NCBI RefSeq assembly: GCF_045037415.1
Contig: NZ_CP173438.1
DNA: 64,000 bases
DNA from: Escherichia coli
GTDB lineage: Bacteria; Pseudomonadota; Gammaproteobacteria; Enterobacterales; Enterobacteriaceae
Reading direction: 5' to 3' (one strand)
Made by a program: the position numbers and the translations under genes. Under the pieces are notes generated by a model. The model was given only the letters and a program-made list of their open reading frames with translations, did not search any database and had not been told where the DNA came from. Positions within the stretch are counted from its first letter, which is position 1, and each line of letters starts with the position of its first letter. Shown here one piece after another: positions 42,027-54,433 of this stretch.

Positions 42027-43307
42027 ATGAGTAAGTCTGAAAATCTTTACAGCGCAGCGCGCGAGCTGATCCCTGGCGGCGTGAACTCCCCTGTTCGCGC
42101 CTTTACTGGCGTGGGCGGCACTCCACTGTTTATCGAAAAAGCGGACGGCGCTTATCTGTACGATGTTGATGGCAAAGCCTATATCGATTATGTCGGTTCC
42201 TGGGGGCCGATGGTGCTGGGCCATAACCATCCGGCGATCCGCAATGCCGTGATTGAAGCCGCCGAGCGTGGTTTAAGCTTTGGTGCACCAACCGAAATGG
42301 AAGTGAAAATGGCGCAACTGGTGACCGAACTGGTCCCGACCATGGATATGGTGCGCATGGTGAACTCCGGCACCGAGGCGACGATGAGCGCCATCCGCCT
42401 GGCCCGTGGTTTTACCGGTCGCGACAAAATTATTAAATTTGAAGGTTGTTACCACGGTCACGCTGACTGCTTGCTGGTGAAAGCCGGTTCTGGCGCACTC
42501 ACGTTAGGCCAGCCAAATTCGCCGGGTGTTCCGGCAGATTTCGCCAAACATACCTTAACCTGTACTTATAACGATCTGGCCTCTGTACGCGCCGCGTTTG
42601 AGCAATACCCGCAAGAGATTGCCTGTATTATCGTCGAGCCGGTGGCAGGCAATATGAACTGCGTGCCACCGCTGCCAGAGTTCCTGCCAGGTCTGCGCGC
42701 GCTGTGCGACGAATTTGGCGCGTTGCTGATCATCGATGAAGTGATGACCGGTTTCCGCGTAGCGCTAGCTGGCGCACAGGATTATTACGGTGTGGAACCG
42801 GATCTCACCTGCCTCGGCAAAATCATCGGCGGTGGAATGCCGGTAGGCGCATTCGGTGGTCGTCGTGATGTAATGGATGCGCTGGCCCCGACCGGTCCGG
42901 TCTATCAGGCGGGTACGCTTTCCGGTAACCCGATTGCGATGGCTGCTGGTTTCGCCTGTCTGAATGAAGTCGCACAGCCGGGCGTTCACGAGACGCTGGA
43001 TGAGCTGACAACACGTCTGGCAGAAGGTCTGCGGGAAGCGGCAGAAGAAGCCGGAATTCCGCTGGTGGTAAACCACGTTGGCGGCATGTTCGGTATTTTC
43101 TTTACCGACGCCGAGTCCGTGACATGCTACCAGGATGTGATGTCCTGTGACGTGGAACGCTTTAAACGTTTCTTCCATATGATGCTGGACGAAGGTGTTT
43201 ATCTGGCACCGTCAGCGTTTGAAGCGGGCTTTATGTCTGTGGCGCACAGCATGGAAGATATCAATAACACCATCGATGCTGCACGTCGGGTGTTTGCGAA
43301 GTTGTGA
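42027..43307 (+). CDS. hemL: glutamate-1-semialdehyde 2,1-aminomutase
   Basis: 426-aa [29 protein letters not shown]... Confidence 0.96.
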
Positions 43308-43314
43308 TGATTTT

Positions 43315-43335
43315 GCCTCGCCCACCGGGCGAGGC
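43315..43335. terminator. bidirectional terminator hairpin between convergent hemL and fhuB
   Basis: gcctcgccc acc gggcgaggc, 9-bp perfect stem, flanked by ttttg. Confidence 0.65.
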
Positions 43336-43341
43336 ATCCTA

Positions 43342-47059: not shown

Positions 47060-49309
47060 TTAGAAACGGAAGGTTGCGGTTGCAACGACCTGACGTTCTG
47101 CGCCCCAGAAGCAACCATAAGTGTTAAAGCAGCTGGCGACGTATTCACGATCGAACAGGTTGTTGACATGCAGCGCCACGTTGGAGCCCGCCATGCCGAC
47201 TCGCGCCAGATCATAACGCACTAACGCATCCACGACCGTATAACTTCCCACTTTAAAGGAGTTAGCCGGATCACCATAGCTGGAGCCAGTATAACGACCA
47301 CCGGTGCCCAGCGTCAGACCTGAAAGCGGACCGTCAAAGAAGGTATAGTCAGCCCACAGCGAAGCCATGTGTTTTGGCACCTGTGCAGGCGTATTTCCTT
47401 TGTAGTTGGTGTCAGTGGTGTATTCCGCGTCAGTATAGGTGTAAGAACCAACCAAGTTAACACTCGCCGACAGTGCCGCTTTCGCTTCCAGCTCTACGCC
47501 ACGCGCACGAATCTCACCGCCTTCAACCGAGAACAGTGAACCGTTCGGATCCGCCATCAGGTTATTAGTTTTGGTAAGCTGATACAGTGCGCCAGTCACC
47601 ACAATTGGGCGATCTTCTGGCACATATTTCACGCCGACTTCATACTGTTTGCCTTTCGAAGGTGCAAACAGATCGCCGTTCGCATCAGTCTGTGAAGCGG
47701 GTTCAAATGATTCACTGTAGCTGAAGTAAGGCGTTACGCCGTTGTCGAACAGGTAGTTTACACCACCACGCCAGGTGAACTCTTTGTCGTCACGTTCAGA
47801 TTTATTACCGTAATCACGGTTGAAAGATGACTGATCGGCCCAGTCATAGCGACCGCCAAGCGTAACCAGCACTTTATCCCACTGCGCCTGATCCTGAACA
47901 TACAGGCCGGTTTGTTTCTGTTTCAGCAGAACGCGGTATGGACCAGACGGATTCGGGTGAGCGCCAAAATCAAAGTCACTACGGTCTAAATTATAGATAT
48001 CAGATGGTGCAACTGAACCGGCATAACCAAACCAGGAATCGATGTCATTACGCATACGCATAAAGTCAACGCCAGTCAGCAGAGTGTGATCCACTGAACC
48101 GGTTGCGAATTTGCTTTGCAACTGAGTATCAACAGAGAAGTTTTCTAACTTCTCATTATCGATAACGTACTGACGAGTCAGTGTATGGCCCCATTGAGAC
48201 TGCGGCACGTTAGCACATGGACTCGAAGAGGGGTTTGAAGAATAGAGCGGGTCTGAGCACATGCCGTAGCCATATACGCTCTTTTGCGAGACTTTATTTT
48301 GTGCAAAGCGCAGGTTCTGACGCACAGTAAAGGTGTCGTTAAATTCGTGGTCGAAGCTATAACCAATCATCTTCTCGTTACGAGAATAGGTGTTGTTCTT
48401 CGCGCCTTCGTTAAAGTCGGTCGGCAGACGCTTACCGTTTGGCAGCGGTTCGACAGTCCCCTCTTTCGGCAACCAGCCGTAATAACCGGTTTCCGGCTCG
48501 TTCTGGAAGTAAGAAAGGAAAGTGAAATTGGTTTTATCATTCGGACGCCAGGTAAACGCTGGAGCAATAGCATAACGCTGCTCTTCAGCCCCCTTCTGCT
48601 GGGCATTCGCAGAACGCGCAAGGCCGGTCAGGCGATAAGAGTAAACGCCGTCATCATCCAGCGCATCGCTGAAGTCAAAACCAGTCTGGAATAGGCTGTC
48701 AGTCCCGGCCTTAAACTGAACTTCTTTCAACGGTTCAGTGGTCGGGCGCTTGCTGACCATGTTCAACAGGCCGCCTGGGCTGCTTTTCCCATACAGCACG
48801 GAAACCGGGCCACGCATGATTTCAGCGCGCTCCAGCATATATGGGTCAATAACCGCATCGTTATAGAAGTTGCCCTGCATCTTCAGGCCATTCAGATAGT
48901 TGTTCTGGCTTTGGCCGTCTGCCGCAAATCCGCGGATGATCAGGTAATCATAAGTATTAGATGCGCCACGGGTTCCCACAGCAACGCCAGGGGTATAGCT
49001 AAGCGCTTCTTTCACCGACTTAGGCTGATGCAGTGCCATCTCTTCAGCGGTGACGACAGAAATAGATTGAGGTACTTTTTGAATCGGCGTATCAGTTTTA
49101 GTGCCGGTAGCGGACTGTCGCGCCGCAATAGTTGCAGCTGGCCCCCATGCGCTTTCTTGCGGCGCAGGTGCAGCGGTAACGGTGATAGTGTCTTCTTTCG
49201 GTTCAACCGCTGCCTGTGCATAAACAGACATGCCGCTAACCGCTGTGGCTACTACAACTGCGATTTTACGCAGTGAGTGTTTTGGCTGAGCAGTTTTGGA
49301 ACGCGCCAT
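47060..49309 (-). CDS. fhuA: TonB-dependent ferrichrome outer-membrane receptor FhuA (receptor for phages T1/T5/phi80, colicin M, albomycin); loop variant differing from K-12
   Basis: 749-aa ORF; signal peptide, TonB box DTITVTA, C-terminal ...ATATFRF; several internal segments differ from the K-12 sequence as I recall it. Confidence 0.95.
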   Translation of the reverse strand: MARSKTAQPKHSLRKIAVVVATAVSGMSVYAQAAVEPKEDTITVTAAPAPQESAWGPAATIAARQSATGTKTDTPIQKVPQSISVVTAEEMALHQPKSVKEALSYTPGVAVGTRGASNTYDYLIIRGFAADGQSQNNYLNGLKMQGNFYNDAVIDPYMLERAEIMRGPVSVLYGKSSPGGLLNMVSKRPTTEPLKEVQFKAGTDSLFQTGFDFSDALDDDGVYSYRLTGLARSANAQQKGAEEQRYAIAPAFTWRPNDKTNFTFLSYFQNEPETGYYGWLPKEGTVEPLPNGKRLPTDFNEGAKNNTYSRNEKMIGYSFDHEFNDTFTVRQNLRFAQNKVSQKSVYGYGMCSDPLYSSNPSSSPCANVPQSQWGHTLTRQYVIDNEKLENFSVDTQLQSKFATGSVDHTLLTGVDFMRMRNDIDSWFGYAGSVAPSDIYNLDRSDFDFGAHPNPSGPYRVLLKQKQTGLYVQDQAQWDKVLVTLGGRYDWADQSSFNRDYGNKSERDDKEFTWRGGVNYLFDNGVTPYFSYSESFEPASQTDANGDLFAPSKGKQYEVGVKYVPEDRPIVVTGALYQLTKTNNLMADPNGSLFSVEGGEIRARGVELEAKAALSASVNLVGSYTYTDAEYTTDTNYKGNTPAQVPKHMASLWADYTFFDGPLSGLTLGTGGRYTGSSYGDPANSFKVGSYTVVDALVRYDLARVGMAGSNVALHVNNLFDREYVASCFNTYGCFWGAERQVVATATFRF

Positions 49310-49330
49310 TGGTATATCTCTGATGAAAGT

Positions 49331-49364
49331 GAATGATAACGTAAACGAGAATGATTATTATAAA
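49331..49364 (-). promoter_or_regulatory. Fur-box-like AT-rich dyad in the fhuA promoter region
   Basis: gaatgataacgtaaacgagaatgattattataaa contains GATAAT/ATCATT hexamers 20-55 nt upstream of the fhuA ATG. Confidence 0.55.
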
Positions 49365-49528
49365 GATGCGATAATATTCGAAACGCTGGCGGGTTCGCAA
49401 GTGATATACGCTCTGTGCGTCCATGAAGGGGCGAGAATCAATCAGATGAATCAAAAATGTTAATCTTTGCACCGTAAACCATAAAAATTCCATTACCAAA
49501 AATTAACATTTATGGCAAAGGGAAAAGC

Positions 49529-50539
49529 TTATCGGTAATACACTTCGAAGGTGGCAACAGAATTAACCCGACCACTTTTGACGCTACCCATTTTGATGTA
49601 GCGTGCTTTTAACGGAATAGTAACATTTTGATTTAACGTCGTTTTTTGAACAGGTGTATAGTCTGTATCAAATACCATCACATTGTTATTACTATCGAGG
49701 ATCTGCAGACCAACTCCTTCCGCCATTCCTGAACCAGACTCAATATTAAGAATATTATTACCCGTTACTCCAGTAGAACCTGATGAAGTAAAGCGGTAAT
49801 CAACTTTTACATCCTGAGAACATTTTTCAATCTGAATTTTAAACCGATCATCGGAAACTACAGGTGACACATTGTTAACATCAAAATCATCTGTGCCAAT
49901 ATCATTGAGTGGAACGGTAATATTTTTTTCTATAAGGTCGCATGTGCCCGGTTGAATATTGACCGGAACAGAACTAAAACGAAGCTCTCCAATAACACGA
50001 TTGTCATACTTCCAGTCAGCAACCAGTTTGCTGGTATCAATGGTCCCATTACCGACAGGTCCTGTGACAATAAACTGAATAGCTGCATGTATTGTAATCG
50101 GATAACCATATCCTTTAATCACTGTTGACGAGCCTTTATGCCAGGGCGTCATTAAATATCCGGCGGTGAGTTGCGCACTGGTGTTATTCGCCCACGCCGC
50201 GCGAAAACCGATTCCTGGCACATTAGTCTGAAACACATTGTTAAGTGGGTTATCAGTACGCATATCACCGTTTGTCAATACGGTATATCCTTGCCAGATC
50301 TCACCATTTGCCGTACAGGAAACTGAAATTGACGGACTGTTCGCATTTACTGTCGCAATAATCGTTCCAGGAACGGCATCGCTATTAACAACCAACGCAG
50401 GCACGGAGAATTGTACTGTTGCCGGATTTCCTCCATTTCCAGAAATGTTACAACCGGCGAAAACCTCAGGAATGACGCCCCAGCTAAGAAATATTATGGT
50501 CAATAATGTTCGTATATAAGAGACGAATCCTGGCTTCAT
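49529..50539 (-). CDS. fimbrial tip adhesin / minor subunit (two-domain, 336 aa) of a chaperone-usher pilus
   Basis: Signal peptide MKPGFVSYIRTLLTIIFLSWGVIPEVFA; C-terminal pilin-type ...SVATFEVYYR; last gene of operon after the usher; AT-rich. Confidence 0.8.
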   Translation of the reverse strand: MKPGFVSYIRTLLTIIFLSWGVIPEVFAGCNISGNGGNPATVQFSVPALVVNSDAVPGTIIATVNANSPSISVSCTANGEIWQGYTVLTNGDMRTDNPLNNVFQTNVPGIGFRAAWANNTSAQLTAGYLMTPWHKGSSTVIKGYGYPITIHAAIQFIVTGPVGNGTIDTSKLVADWKYDNRVIGELRFSSVPVNIQPGTCDLIEKNITVPLNDIGTDDFDVNNVSPVVSDDRFKIQIEKCSQDVKVDYRFTSSGSTGVTGNNILNIESGSGMAEGVGLQILDSNNNVMVFDTDYTPVQKTTLNQNVTIPLKARYIKMGSVKSGRVNSVATFEVYYR

Positions 50540-50560
50540 TATTTTTTCCTGTCTTATTTG

Positions 50561-53038
50561 TTATCGGCAATCCATTGTGGCTTTATAGATACCCGTGGTG
50601 TATTTTTCTGGCACTGTGACAACTCCTGTACATTGCTGGTTAATCTCTTTTCCCCACTGTACCGTAAATGTCATTGATTCTTGCACACCAGTAATATAAA
50701 CCTCCCCATCTTCACCAACAATCGCTGTACTATTCCCTAATGTCAGCAATGCCCCAAAGGGTACGCGTTCTTTATTATGGACTAATGTCAACAAGGCTCG
50801 TATTCCGCTACGTGCATCAAAATCGACACCAACAACAGCCCCTTTCGAAGGAATAACATCTTGTGTGGCATCAGAAATATCAAGACTATCGTGCCCCTGT
50901 GTATTCACAGTAATAGCGTTATGTCGATAATTCGTCATATTGGGAACAATCGCGTTTCCCCAATAATCAGTATAAACGCCTTGCGCATTTTGTACTTTTA
51001 CATTGGCACCCTCATTAATATGCACGATCGCGAATGAATCCTGCACTGATTGCCCCAATGTTACTCCATGAGCATGAGCAACCACCGCACCTTGCGCACT
51101 GTAATTCCACTGACGACTATTTTTATCATAGCTATATCCCAGACCGAATTCCCCCACTGAGCTACGATAACGTCCATTCATGCTGGCATCATAACCCACA
51201 TTATTATCAGTATAACTTTGCTGTAAATTATAACTCAGGTTGTTATCTTGCAGAGCAGTACCGCCAATTCCCAATTGATGTGATGTATTACTTTTATCGG
51301 AACGGTTTACGTTATACATCGCCCATGAATCTGGCAGCCAGCGAGAGAGAGGAATATTGAGTGTTAATGAAAATTGCTGCTCACCAGCCATTCCTGGCGT
51401 TTTCGTTAGTGTGTAATTAACAGACCAATTAATGTTACTCCAGGTCGTACTGTATCCCATTCCTATACTGCGTTCGGCCCCATGCATTCCCCAATAATCC
51501 TGTTGATAACCGTTAAGGTAGACCGAGCCCCAACGACCAATATTTTGTGAAAGATTAATTTGTAAACGATTACGCCGATTATTTGTCTGTCGATAACTGT
51601 AAATACCCTTGTCATCAGGTGTATCACGTTGATCAAGTGCTTCCTGGAAAGTGTAAAATTGTGATGTAGAATAACGATAACTTGCCAGAGTTACTGTCGT
51701 ATCAGTGTCTGGAAAATCTTTCGCATACTGTGCACGCCATGACAGTCCTGTAGCATCATCACGCCCATCATCAAACTTCGTTTCTGCTGCGGTGATATCA
51801 ACAGATACCGACCCCAGACGGCCTAAATCAGCGCCAATCCCTGTCACACCAGAATGATAAATTGAGGCACCAAGTATGCCGCCATAAATCGTTATTCCAT
51901 AGGGCAAGCCATATATCGCGGTTGCAACACCAAAAACAGGTGTCTCAGCATGATTATCGTTGTCACGGTATTTTCCAGTTGCAAGACTATATTTTAATGC
52001 GCCTTCTCGCTGTAGAATTGGAACCGTTGAACTGGCCTGAATAAAACTGTGTTCTTGCCCGTTGGTTTCTTTGATGGTGACTTCCAGATCGGCCCCCGCC
52101 GTTACCTGGCTTAAGTCTTTAATTTCAAATGGCCCTGCCGATACCCACGTTTGGTAAATAACATAGCCGTTTTGTTTAATCACAACTTGTGCATCGCTGT
52201 TGGCAATACCACGAACCACTGGCGCAAAGCCTTGTTCGCTGTCAGGCAGCATACTGGTGTCCGTTTCAAGCTTTATACCTGTCATCTGCACACTGTCAAA
52301 AAGATCGCCATTTGTGAACGTCTGCCCGACTTCCATCTGGCTTCTTAATGCTTTGATATCGCGTTGCAAACTGGTGCTGATCGACTCCCAACTGGAGTCA
52401 CTGTAAACGGTATTATTTCGTAGCCGCCATACGCCTAAATTAATCCCTGAATTTAAATTCAACCAATTTGAATTCAGGTTATCGCCATCACTGTTTTGCC
52501 GGGAACCACTGGCGTAATAACTTAACCAAACCGCACTCTCACCATCACTCCAGTATTTCGGTGAAATACTCCCTGCGGCCCGCGCATTCTGATAGATTTG
52601 CGGGATCCGCAGACACAGCGTTTGGCTGTCTAACTGGAAATCATAACGTGCGCCATCAATAATCTGAGCAATATCACCAAACTCAGTGTCATCATCCATT
52701 ACTTGTAACGCGGGAATGTCGTCAACTTTAAGACCGAACTCACGGAGATCCGCCTTTGTAAAACGAGGGATGAGCCTTTTTTTATCCGAAGACAGAATGA
52801 AGGTAATATTTCTCTTATCAAGATACTCTTGCCCCCACATAACAGAGGTAAGATATACTCCCGGAGTTAAGTTATTATTATTAACAAAATCCTCCAGCAC
52901 TTGTGTATTTTCAAGTGGGCTATCCAGCTCCAGGATACGAAGGTTAAATTCATCTCGTGCATAGCTCAATGAATACACTGCCGATAATGCAAATGTTATC
53001 CCAGTTAAGACAAATGTGCGATGCAATGGTAGCAGCAT
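50561..53038 (-). CDS. fimbrial outer-membrane usher (FimD/PapC family)
   Basis: 825-aa ORF with signal peptide and usher-like size and composition; lies between chaperone and adhesin genes. Confidence 0.9.
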   Translation of the reverse strand: MLLPLHRTFVLTGITFALSAVYSLSYARDEFNLRILELDSPLENTQVLEDFVNNNNLTPGVYLTSVMWGQEYLDKRNITFILSSDKKRLIPRFTKADLREFGLKVDDIPALQVMDDDTEFGDIAQIIDGARYDFQLDSQTLCLRIPQIYQNARAAGSISPKYWSDGESAVWLSYYASGSRQNSDGDNLNSNWLNLNSGINLGVWRLRNNTVYSDSSWESISTSLQRDIKALRSQMEVGQTFTNGDLFDSVQMTGIKLETDTSMLPDSEQGFAPVVRGIANSDAQVVIKQNGYVIYQTWVSAGPFEIKDLSQVTAGADLEVTIKETNGQEHSFIQASSTVPILQREGALKYSLATGKYRDNDNHAETPVFGVATAIYGLPYGITIYGGILGASIYHSGVTGIGADLGRLGSVSVDITAAETKFDDGRDDATGLSWRAQYAKDFPDTDTTVTLASYRYSTSQFYTFQEALDQRDTPDDKGIYSYRQTNNRRNRLQINLSQNIGRWGSVYLNGYQQDYWGMHGAERSIGMGYSTTWSNINWSVNYTLTKTPGMAGEQQFSLTLNIPLSRWLPDSWAMYNVNRSDKSNTSHQLGIGGTALQDNNLSYNLQQSYTDNNVGYDASMNGRYRSSVGEFGLGYSYDKNSRQWNYSAQGAVVAHAHGVTLGQSVQDSFAIVHINEGANVKVQNAQGVYTDYWGNAIVPNMTNYRHNAITVNTQGHDSLDISDATQDVIPSKGAVVGVDFDARSGIRALLTLVHNKERVPFGALLTLGNSTAIVGEDGEVYITGVQESMTFTVQWGKEINQQCTGVVTVPEKYTTGIYKATMDCR

Positions 53039-53104
53039 AAATTCCCTTGCGCCCGTAATATTATAAATACAGATCGGTTATTTATAGTAATACACTTCGG
53101 TGAT

Positions 53105-53821
53105 TTATAACTTTTGTTGTCGTTTCCCAGAACTTGAACCGTAGTCAGTTATCACCGACCATTCAACAATACTTCCCGCTCCGACAGGAAGACTAAACCG
53201 CTGCTCAGAAAATGGTCCTACCATCATCAATAATGCGCCAGGTTCAGATTTGCTCTCGGTGGGAACAATATTTTTTCCCGATACTGTCAGATCACTGAAT
53301 GAAATATAAAAAGGCGTTGGATTTTTTACTATGAGCTTCCCCGCTTCTTTATGGAACTTAAGTTTTTCCCATGCAGTGAGAGCATCACTATTATCCAAAG
53401 AAGCTGGCCGCCAAAATAATTTAAGCCGGGCTTTCATTGCAAATTGCAAGGTATTTCTATCTTTTAGTTCTTCTGGCATCGCAGAAACAGATTTTATGTT
53501 TGCCAGAAACAAACTTTCCCTATCCTGAGGAAGTTTGTTTTTATCACCTGTAAATACAATATGGAGTAATGTTTGCCGATTTTCTTCAAGTTTATAAACT
53601 GGAGGCGTAATGAGAAAGGGGGCTTTAGAGCCATCAATATTACTCACCCAGCTTTGCACCAAATAGCGTGCATATGCATCTTTATTTTTTAATGTGATTT
53701 GAACTTCATTTTGATTTGAAGGATAGATAATACGTGTACCGCCAAGAACAATACTTGCCTGAACTTGCAATGCCGTAAGAAGAAACGTAAAACCTAAACA
53801 AACTCGAGAAAAAACTGACAT
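53105..53821 (-). CDS. periplasmic fimbrial chaperone (PapD/FimC family)
   Basis: ORF track 53105..53854 begins at TTG; ATG at 53821 gives MSVFSRVCLGFTFLLTALQVQA signal peptide; ~238 aa. Confidence 0.85.
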   Translation of the reverse strand: MSVFSRVCLGFTFLLTALQVQASIVLGGTRIIYPSNQNEVQITLKNKDAYARYLVQSWVSNIDGSKAPFLITPPVYKLEENRQTLLHIVFTGDKNKLPQDRESLFLANIKSVSAMPEELKDRNTLQFAMKARLKLFWRPASLDNSDALTAWEKLKFHKEAGKLIVKNPTPFYISFSDLTVSGKNIVPTESKSEPGALLMMVGPFSEQRFSLPVGAGSIVEWSVITDYGSSSGKRQQKL

Positions 53822-53866
53822 AAATAACCCTCCGTGGTCAAACAGTCCTTTCAAACACTATGAATA

Positions 53867-54433
53867 TTAGCGATAAAATACTTCGAACGTCGCAGATGAG
53901 GCATACTTACCCGCAGTCGGCGCGTTATTACCAACCTGAATAACATTGGCGGTGTAATTGAATATTGTTGGAGTAATGCTCCCGGCATTATCAACATCAG
54001 TGGATGCATCGGGAACTGAACCATCAAATTTCACATCGTTAGCACCGCCATTTTTATTTGTCACCGTAATACCCACATTTGTTGCACTGCCAGCCCCAGC
54101 TTCGCTATTTTCCAGACGCAGGAAACCTGCATCCGTTGTCGTTCCAGAAAATGTCAGGTTTAGTTTGTCCACCAACGGATCGCATTTTATTAATTCAATT
54201 TTAAAATCTTTTGACGTTCCAATACTACCGTCTCCAGAATAGTCCGCTGGGTAAGTATCTGCAAAAGTGACTGTCCCTGTTGTACTGGCAGACTCGTTTA
54301 CATTAATTTCGCAAGTATCGGCAACAATTTTACCGTTAAAGTTAACCACTCCGGTATCTGTAGCAAATACACTGGTACTTACTACAGCGATGAGACTTCC
54401 TGACACTAACAGAGAAAGCAATTTTTTATTCAT
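53867..54433 (-). CDS. major fimbrial subunit (type-1-like pilin)
   Basis: 188 aa; signal peptide MNKKLLSLLVSGSLIAVVSTSVFA; Cys pair (ADTC...IKCD); C-terminal ...SSATFEVFYR; first gene of operon. Confidence 0.85.
   Translation of the reverse strand: MNKKLLSLLVSGSLIAVVSTSVFATDTGVVNFNGKIVADTCEINVNESASTTGTVTFADTYPADYSGDGSIGTSKDFKIELIKCDPLVDKLNLTFSGTTTDAGFLRLENSEAGAGSATNVGITVTNKNGGANDVKFDGSVPDASTDVDNAGSITPTIFNYTANVIQVGNNAPTAGKYASSATFEVFYR

Follow-up and report, generated by a model that had tools for sequence, protein, structure and literature searches.

The window, by which we mean the whole stretch of 64,000 nucleotides of Escherichia coli DNA analysed here (contig NZ_CP173438.1), most probably carries a functional gene for the ferrichrome TonB-dependent transporter FhuA, set in a normal fhuACDB operon and encoding an old alternative type of the surface loops. 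Judged from the sequence, we place the probability of this reading at about 0.8. A FhuA with divergent loops is genuine, ordinary and known: it has already been published that E. coli has several FhuA types, that recombination exchanges them and that a sister allele is no longer recognised by T1 and T5. The initial annotation had noticed loop segments that depart from those of K-12, and alignment together with topology mapping bears this out. Both peptides that it quoted are correct (GMCSDPLYSSNPSSSPCANVPQSQWGHTLTRQYVIDNEKLENF in the window, CSDPANAYSKQCAALAPADKGHYLARKYVVDDEKLQNF in K-12), as is the length of the precursor (749 vs 747 aa), and the TonB box and C-terminus are indeed those of FhuA, with residues 1-109 and everything from codon 636 onward unchanged relative to K-12.

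The gene was identified on several grounds: (i), the protein is identical to WP_000124398.1 (strain SK1144 and EC958, a strain of the pandemic ST131). (ii), residues 34-749 align end to end with chain residues 1-714 of the structures 1BY3 and 8A8C (1460-1465 bits) and, (iii) the NCBIfam FhuA equivalog NF007465 covers residues 1-749 with a score of 1450.4 bits (cut-off 803). The gene order fhuA-fhuC-fhuD-fhuB was read from the SK1144 and EC958 records, which hold the identical protein, and the promoter-proximal 100 nt of fhuA, with a putative Fur-like site (Table 1), are nearly identical to K-12. For the whole gene, dN and dS relative to K-12 are 0.065 and 0.55, a ratio of about 0.12. Residues R81, G99, Q100, F115, Y116, Y244, W246, Y313, Y315, F391 and F693, which (Y244 and W246 aside) we take from the structures of Ferguson 1998 and Locher 1998 to form the ferrichrome pocket, are all retained, and so are both Cys pairs of K-12 FhuA. 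F702, a further candidate contact residue, was dropped because this position is Ala in all sequences compared. Contact with ferrichrome is documented for Y244 and W246 (PMC10373560). The parts that serve transport, namely the signal peptide, the TonB box, the plug, the pocket residues, L3 and L11, are as in K-12.

The loop topology was mapped on the strands of an AlphaFold2 model built from a 34-sequence alignment. The model has 22 strands and its loops match the published boundaries, but with a mean pLDDT of only 52.9 and a plug below 50 (unmodelled) it is poor and was used for strand order alone, the loops being checked against the published limits of L3 (247-273), L4 (318-339), L5 (394-419), L8 (552-558), L10 (640-654) and L11 (689-701; PMC10373560 supplement) and of EL7 (501-516) and EL8 (546-564; PMC9586334). 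The 22-strand fold of the window protein is otherwise presumed from its 89% identity to solved structures. In the alignment with K-12, 671 of 750 columns are identical, and there are no gaps except two indels, of three codons in L4 and one codon in L5. The changed positions, substitutions and indels together, number 79: the extracellular loops account for 44 (L5 16, L4 15, L7 7, L6 2, L8 2, L2 1, L9 1), the outward halves of the adjoining strands for 20, the periplasmic side for 11 and the plug for 4. Plug and linker (161 residues) thus hold these four changes only, all conservative; the signal peptide has none, and neither have L1, L3, L10 and L11. Within the barrel, 64 of 342 positions differ on the outer side and 11 of 213 on the side facing the periplasm, a clustering well outside chance expectation (Fisher p = 2.8e-6). 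The proposal that the changes lie in extracellular loops and outer strand ends (L4-L8), rather than in membrane-embedded or periplasmic parts, holds when the K-12 alignment is placed on the model.

Compared with K-12 FhuA (PDB 1BY3, 2FCP, 8A8C, 8A60), the operon context, the promoter-proximal region, the plug and both disulfides are alike, whereas L4 is three residues longer, L5 is one residue shorter, and L6-L8 differ together with the adjacent outer strand ends; in the core, the DNA is 24-62% mismatched. L4 keeps its Cys-Cys pair and has its tip replaced, in a stretch with 61.7% DNA mismatch (48192-48251). The binding surface is not K-12-like: L4, L5, L7 and L8 together account for 40 of the 79 differing positions, and Y325, D509, E554 and F557 of K-12 are all replaced. 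The interval first proposed for the divergent segments, 47650-48270 (codons 347-553), does hold most of the amino-acid changes, but the block of divergent DNA is larger.

Table 1. Location of fhuA, of its divergent and K-12-like parts and of the variable loops (positions in the window)
Feature	Position	Strand	Remarks
Fur-box-like site	49347..49365	minus	putative; 14/19 consensus matches, consensus match only
fhuA CDS, 749 aa, intact	47060..49309	minus	structure alignment, NCBIfam score, record identity
K-12-like 5' part: signal peptide (codons 1-33), TonB-box DTITV (codons 40-44), plug start	49142..49309	minus	dS ~0.02
Moderately divergent block: plug, strands 1-7, L1-L3	48252..49141	minus	9.8% mismatch, dS ~0.49, dN 0.013
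L4, residues 351-375 (K-12 mature 318-342)	48185..48259	minus	15 changes incl. 3-residue insertion
L5, residues 428-456 (K-12 mature 394-419)	47942..48028	minus	16 changes incl. 1-residue deletion
L6 hairpin tip, residues 494-510	47780..47830	minus	9 changes: 2 in loop, 7 in outer strand
L7, residues 537-550 (K-12 mature 501-516)	47660..47701	minus	7 changes, D509N at tip
L8, residues 582-599 (K-12 mature 546-564)	47513..47566	minus	changes E554N, F557L
K-12-like 3' part from ~codon 638: strands 18-22, L10, L11, C-terminal Phe	47060..47397	minus	dS ~0.10

Synonymous divergence from K-12 is very uneven along the gene. By codon segment, dS is about 0.02 (codons 1-60), 0.49 (61-330), 1.21 and thus saturated (331-650) and 0.10 (651-749), the neighbouring hrpB, fhuC, fhuD, fhuB, hemL and clcA having values of 0.08-0.16. 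Change points in the DNA mismatch with K-12 fall at 49142, 48252, 48192 and 47398: mismatch is 1.2% at 49400-49142, 9.8% at 49141-48252, 61.7% at 48251-48192 (the L4 tip), 23.7% at 48191-47398 and 2.7% from 47397. In the second of these blocks dN is so low (Table 1) that the protein is almost unchanged. The right-hand breakpoint lies near 47398, and the left edge of fhuA is common to all E. coli allele classes examined. The peak of dS in the core, set against the background level of the ends and of the neighbouring genes, argues that fhuA is a mosaic, assembled by recombination around a haplotype of great age; a dS maximum over the variable loops with background values at the flanks is the pattern of a trans-species allele class. 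The two short ends of the gene (codons 1-56, and codon 638 or so onward) are of the usual E. coli kind, and the core between them departs from K-12 at synonymous sites as far as different genera do; the allele is a mosaic made by recombination and not the product of recent point mutation.

A comparison of loops across genera showed that L4 and L5 come in two discrete forms. Those of the window are identical at 32-34 of 36-37 residues to the loops of several other genera (Citrobacter, Enterobacter, Leclercia, Silvania), and the K-12 form recurs in E. whittamii, S. arizonae, Phytobacter and others. Over codons 331-650, the window protein is 77.9% identical to K-12 and 86-89% identical to Citrobacter amalonaticus, C. 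sedlakii, C. youngae, Enterobacter vonholyi and Leclercia; the K-12 core for its part is 88-92% identical to Phytobacter massiliensis, S. arizonae, Citrobacter NCU1 and Enterobacter asburiae, and 98.7% identical to E. whittamii. In bootstrap trees from Kimura protein distances, the core gives a K-12-type clade that crosses genera (bootstrap 99.5%) and 0% for Escherichia monophyly, whereas codons 61-330 give 86% for Escherichia monophyly. The variable part thus groups by class across species and the rest of the protein by taxonomy, which is again the trans-species pattern. In the wider family sample the window loop form is the majority, and the K-12 form is a minority in the family yet the majority in E. 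coli.

Within E. coli, the WP_000124398.1 allele is present in 566 of 5,426 complete genomes. When 5,424 genomes are sorted by identity to the window FhuA, 566 are at >=99%, 314 at 95-99%, 286 at 90-95%, 3,695 at 80-90% and 563 at 60-80%. At least three FhuA classes coexist in the species, with 73-89% protein identity between them, and make up about 68%, 21% and 10% of complete genomes, class frequencies that are not population frequencies because RefSeq complete genomes over-represent clinical clones such as ST131.

The initial annotation had spoken of receptor-loop diversification. As a recent, lineage-specific event, in which phages or colicins would have driven the accumulation of point mutations in the loops of a gene otherwise like that of K-12, this is very improbable. 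The changes do cluster in exposed loops, and dN rises to 0.32-0.46 in the windows of 30 codons containing L4 and L5, as such selection would have it; but dS is saturated in the same stretch, set against a background of 0.08-0.16, nearly unchanged loop sequences are found in other genera, 566 genomes share the identical allele and the boundaries of the blocks are sharp, as expected of recombination. Nor are the synonymous differences an artefact, the alignment with K-12 having no gaps beyond the two indels. The term has therefore to be given up in this sense. Relaxed constraint, with FhuA dispensable in the lineage and its loops drifting, is hardly credible: while fhuA is frequently inactivated in the laboratory and in some clinical strains, and several records have IS insertions, the window gene is an intact ORF with a low overall dN/dS, it keeps the pocket residues and disulfides, its equivalog score is far over the cut-off and the loop form itself is conserved across genera.

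One or more introgressions of the fhuA core from another enterobacterial genus, followed by recombinational spread and without long-term balancing selection in E. coli, would account for a core protein that resembles those of Citrobacter, Enterobacter and Leclercia more than that of K-12, and for the sharp breakpoints within conserved flanks. A third E. coli class (strain GPEC657), which is closest to Enterobacter sp. R1, and the allelic replacement documented in ST410 (PMC6715731) point the same way. We nevertheless consider this scenario unlikely. The sampled species representatives include no donor of the window core that is close at the DNA level, since the best cores from outside Escherichia stand at a dS of 1.3-1.9, much like their non-variable N-terminal part (1.1-1.9), and both loop forms also occur in other Escherichia at about species-level divergence (E. 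whittamii vs K-12, dS 0.34; Escherichia sp. E1V33 vs the window, 0.39). With core synonymous sites saturated, an import in the distant past and a polymorphism maintained since then lead one to expect nearly the same pattern and are inseparable. The old alternative loop type on a working transporter is our preferred reading, and a wider hypothesis, which we advance tentatively and at somewhat less than even odds, may be built on it. Loop forms A and B (L4/L5), with a third form that lacks L4, would be a balanced polymorphism that predates Escherichia and is held in many genera of Enterobacteriaceae by phages and bacteriocins, the first 170 nt and the last 340 nt of the gene, both conserved, serving as recombination anchors for swaps of the loop cassette; FhuA-dependent phages adapted to the K-12 form, which is frequent in commensal E. 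coli, and perhaps colicin M, would thereby fail to recognise ST131. What the pattern makes most likely as the cause is lasting, frequency-dependent selection by phages and bacteriocins for the receptor form that escapes attack at a given time, while homologous recombination carries the forms from lineage to lineage.

FhuA is a major entry point for siphophages (T1, T5, phi80 and many newer isolates), colicin M, microcin J25 and the siderophore antibiotic albomycin. Endriss and Braun are said to have found in 2004 that deletion of L3 or L11 abolishes transport, that deletion of L8 abolishes sensitivity to colicin M, T1, T5 and phi80, and that loss of L7 gives resistance to colicin M and loss of L4 resistance to T1 and phi80. 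The T5 protein pb5 contacts EL4-EL11, and EL4, EL5 and EL8 hold 23 of the 27 hydrogen bonds (PMC9586334). L4-L8, which in the window protein are of the second form, provide the surface on which T5 pb5 docks; for T1, phi80 and colicin M the same is indicated by genetics. A sister allele is informative here: the FhuA of E. coli Nissle 1917 allows no adsorption of T1 or T5, and K-12 FhuA restores infection (PMC13226779, 2026). The Nissle protein (WP_000035479.1 / AID77215.1; 752 aa) belongs to the same class as that of the window and is identical to it at 734 of 752 positions (97.6%). L5, L6, L7 and L8 are the same in both, L4 is identical at 27 of 36 residues with another tip (LYSSNPSSSPCANV in the window, LYTKDQEALKASPCLSI in Nissle), and a handful of other changes lie near L9. 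The arithmetic 753-82 = 671, equal to the count of residues shared by the window and K-12, would suggest one and the same allele; the length, the 97.6% identity and the L4 tip of the Nissle record rule this out.

An altered phage profile, as first suggested from the loop pattern, is likely for the window FhuA given the pb5 contacts in EL4, EL5 and EL8 and the failure of T1 and T5 to recognise the Nissle allele; because the L4 tips differ, non-adsorption of T1 and T5 is for the window allele an extrapolation. We would predict normal uptake of ferrichrome and albomycin, poor or absent adsorption of T1 and T5 adapted to K-12 (by analogy with the Nissle allele), possibly altered sensitivity to phi80 and colicin M, and sensitivity to phages adapted to the window loop form. 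While the window allele leaves the understanding of FhuA itself unchanged, the ST131 loop form is useful for the selection and engineering of therapeutic phages and bacteriocins against ST131, and it bears on how K-12 host-range data are read and on the genome-based prediction of phage receptors.

The exchange of FhuA types has a precedent in the ST410 B4/H24RxC clone, where fhuA underwent allelic replacement at the fhu locus (PMC6715731). As in the window, deeply different FhuA types are swapped within E. coli by homologous recombination; the alleles concerned (WP_039023099.1 and WP_000124383.1, <74% nucleotide identity) make the likeness one of phenomenon only. OmpA offers a second parallel, since eight loop variants set the host range of Gp38 phages (PMC12032242) and discrete variants of exposed loops sit, as in FhuA, on a conserved barrel. 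OmpA is however a different protein, FhuA being a 22-strand TonB-dependent transporter whose variant loops are shared across genera. Targeted literature searches turned up no population-genetic study of the FhuA classes themselves, only remarks in the papers on ST410 and Nissle, and a broad search for positive or balancing selection gave MHC-type papers only.

A fimbrial operon lies adjacent to fhuA in the window and co-occurs perfectly with the allele in the 566 genomes; Nissle 1917 is without it. Joint import of this operon with the fhuA core is unsupported: about 390 nt separate the two, with K-12-like DNA between them (49142-49400), and a homologous fimbrial operon stands beside both loop forms in other genera. 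The co-occurrence in the 566 genomes is best read as shared clonal ancestry.

The window protein is identical to WP_000124398.1, the FhuA allele of the O25b:H4-ST131 strain EC958. It exceeds the NCBIfam FhuA equivalog cut-off by a wide margin (1450 bits against 803), its residues 34-749 align to mature E. coli FhuA as solved in 1BY3, 2FCP, 8A8C and 8A60, and fhuC, fhuD and fhuB lie downstream of the gene in the same arrangement as in K-12. E. coli SK1144 is 99.97% identical to the window across 22 kb. When the protein was aligned with K-12 FhuA (the locus copy of a DH1 derivative), 671 of 750 columns were identical; the lengths of 749 and 747 aa and the two peptides, window and K-12, quoted by the initial annotation were exact. 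The range singled out there, 47650-48270, covers fhuA codons 347-553. Topology was taken from the strand order of an AlphaFold2 model, poor overall, whose 22 strands match the loop boundaries given in the literature (L3 247-273, L4 318-339, L5 394-419, L8 552-558, L10 640-654, L11 689-701, PMC10373560 supplement; EL7 501-516, EL8 546-564, PMC9586334). The 79 changed positions fall in L5 (16), L4 (15), L7 (7), L6 and L8 (2 each), L2 and L9 (1 each), the outer (20) and inner (9) strand halves, the periplasmic turns (2) and the plug plus linker (4), with none in the signal peptide or in L1, L3, L10 and L11. Barrel changes are thus concentrated on the outer side (64/342 vs 11/213 on the inner side, Fisher p = 2.8e-6). 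The earlier observation is correct: alignment and loop mapping place the differences mainly at the surface loops, rather than finding them absent or a matter of the transmembrane strands.

Positions of the features discussed, in window coordinates
Feature	Coordinates	Strand	Remark
fhuA ORF	47060-49309	minus	749 codons
fhuA codons 1-56	49142-49309		suggested common left-hand crossover
fhuB-hemL spacer	43295-43341		34 bp
Fimbrial operon	49529-54433	minus	four genes
Major subunit	53867-54433	minus	
Chaperone	53105-53821	minus	
Usher	50561-53038	minus	
Two-domain tip protein	49529-50539	minus	

These changes are not recent. At the DNA level fhuA is only 86% identical to K-12, against 95-98% for the flanking genes, and divergence is strongly segmental (Nei-Gojobori, against K-12): codons 1-60 show dS 0.02 and dN 0, codons 61-330 dS 0.49 and dN 0.013, codons 331-650 (hereafter the core) dS 1.21 and dN 0.147, and codons 651-749 dS 0.10 and dN 0, compared with dS 0.08-0.16 and dN 0.001-0.013 in hrpB, fhuC, fhuD, fhuB, hemL and clcA. 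A change-point fit gave five sharp-edged blocks with edges at 49142, 48252, 48192 and 47398. Segmental dS and sharp edges together mark the gene as a mosaic built by recombination, with a very old haplotype at its centre. Such block edges, and a dS of up to 1.21 beside neighbours at 0.08-0.16, are not the traces that recently fixed loop mutations would leave. The "diversification" suggested initially does not hold as a new event: the window carries a common, catalogued fhuA allele, and the gene is well known as a polymorphic receptor. In the fhuB-hemL spacer, the window is about 123 bp shorter than K-12 (157 bp), which is probably accounted for by an extra repeat element in K-12.

Where might the core come from? 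We compared fhuA from 66 loci, found by scanning a single genome for each bacterial species. Window and K-12 core proteins are 77.9% identical; the window core is 86-89% identical to those of Citrobacter amalonaticus, C. sedlakii, C. youngae, Enterobacter vonholyi, Leclercia and Lelliottia, and the K-12 core 98.7% to E. whittamii and 88-92% to Phytobacter massiliensis, Buttiauxella massiliensis, Citrobacter sp. NCU1, Enterobacter asburiae and S. enterica subsp. arizonae. In neighbour-joining trees (200 bootstraps), the K-12-type cores of eight taxa form one clade (99.5%) and a single Escherichia core clade is never recovered (0%), while the six Escherichia sequences cluster over codons 61-330 (86%). 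L4 and L5 each exist in two discrete forms conserved between genera, and L6, L7 and L8 vary more gradually. The window L4 is identical at 34/36 positions to those of C. amalonaticus, C. sedlakii, E. vonholyi and Leclercia, but at only 27/36 to that of Nissle 1917, otherwise the closest E. coli allele. Recent import from a foreign source is not indicated by the sequences compared, since no sampled species is close at the DNA level: the best non-Escherichia cores lie at dS 1.3-1.9, about the dS of the unvarying N-terminal part of the same genes. Among other Escherichia species, too, both loop forms are present, and their divergence is about that between species (E. whittamii vs K-12, dS 0.34; Escherichia sp. 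E1V33 vs window, dS 0.39).

Binned by identity to the window fhuA, the 5,426 complete E. coli genomes sampled include 566 at >=99%, 314 at 95-99%, 286 at 90-95%, 3,695 at 80-90% (the K-12 class) and 563 at 60-80%. A 752-aa subtype, found in S1-ISR-02-A and in SSGw2, whose protein is that of Nissle, departs from the window mainly at the tip of L4. The third class, 729 aa long (GPEC657, locus L003:6001-8190, and 562 other genomes), is 73% identical to each of the other two, is devoid of the L4 extension and its disulfide and carries an insertion in L6; it is identical to K-12 over codons 1-60 and divergent from codon 61 to the gene end, and the species scan found nothing nearer to it than Enterobacter sp. 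R1(2018) (86.7%). Five E. coli alleles were compared, and the first ~60 codons are near-identical in each (dS 0-0.04, below the neighbours' 0.08-0.16), which suggests that codons 1-56 may be a left-hand crossover point shared by every allele replacement. One E. coli clone has been described in which recombination replaced the fhu allele (PMC6715731). Judging from the pattern, long-lived receptor classes would have been shuffled by recombination, phage and bacteriocin pressure being the most plausible driver.

Insertion sequences (ISVsa5-family, IS1A, IS3-family) break up fhuA in NZ_CP017100.1, NZ_CP041919.1 and NZ_CP103673.1, of which two come from human isolates and one from a laboratory strain; three fhuA matches are plasmid-borne. 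Early stops in Escherichia sp. MOD1-EC7003 (593 aa), Intestinirhabdus alba (117 aa) and Citrobacter amalonaticus AUH_CA_2023_1 (249 aa) may be pseudogenes or assembly frameshifts. Immediately upstream of the locus, the Nissle 1917 record NZ_CP007799.1 (L072:17569-20357) carries a duplicated dksA and partial sfsA/gluQRS segment, which may be an assembly artefact of this older record.

What differs from K-12 is the docking surface. Residues 1-109 are identical and the plug nearly so, both Cys pairs are conserved along with the ferrichrome pocket residues, L3 and L11 have no changes, and the proximal promoter, Fur-like site included, matches that of K-12; all parts needed for uptake are kept. T5 pb5 contacts every loop but EL1-3, with 23/27 hydrogen bonds in EL4, EL5 and EL8 (PMC9586334), and F557 (L8) and Y325 (L4) have been singled out in work on SO1-like phages and T5 (PMC10373560); the window protein has Leu and Ser at these respective positions. 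Nissle 1917 FhuA, a sister allele sharing L5-L8 with the window, supports neither adsorption nor plaques of T1 or T5, whereas K-12 FhuA in the same cells supports both (PMC13226779). Because uptake parts are kept, docking loops changed and the Nissle phenotype known, we predict normal ferrichrome uptake and lost recognition by K-12-adapted T1 and T5; the earlier hint of a possibly altered phage or bacteriocin sensitivity is reasonable.

mrcB and fhuA, 219 bp apart in K-12, are separated here by a low-G+C (37-45%) chaperone-usher fimbrial operon. It is present in exactly the 566 complete E. coli genomes with the window fhuA allele, ST131 EC958 included. None of its four genes reached an NCBIfam equivalog cut-off (best, the usher against LpfC, 679 bits, cut-off 1271), and residues 1-200 of the tip protein had no PDB sequence match. 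Homologous operons (usher 59-67%, tip protein 35-60% identical) occupy the same site in Citrobacter (On2M, FP75, sedlakii), Enterobacter (chuandaensis, wuhouensis, asburiae), Lelliottia and Huaxiibacter, at bases ~1-2800, directly upstream of fhuA, of the loci L007, L009, L032, L037, L039, L057, L060 and L067. Since they adjoin either FhuA loop form in these genera, the mrcB-fimbrial-fhuA arrangement is old with a patchy distribution, and ST131 is not alone in having it.
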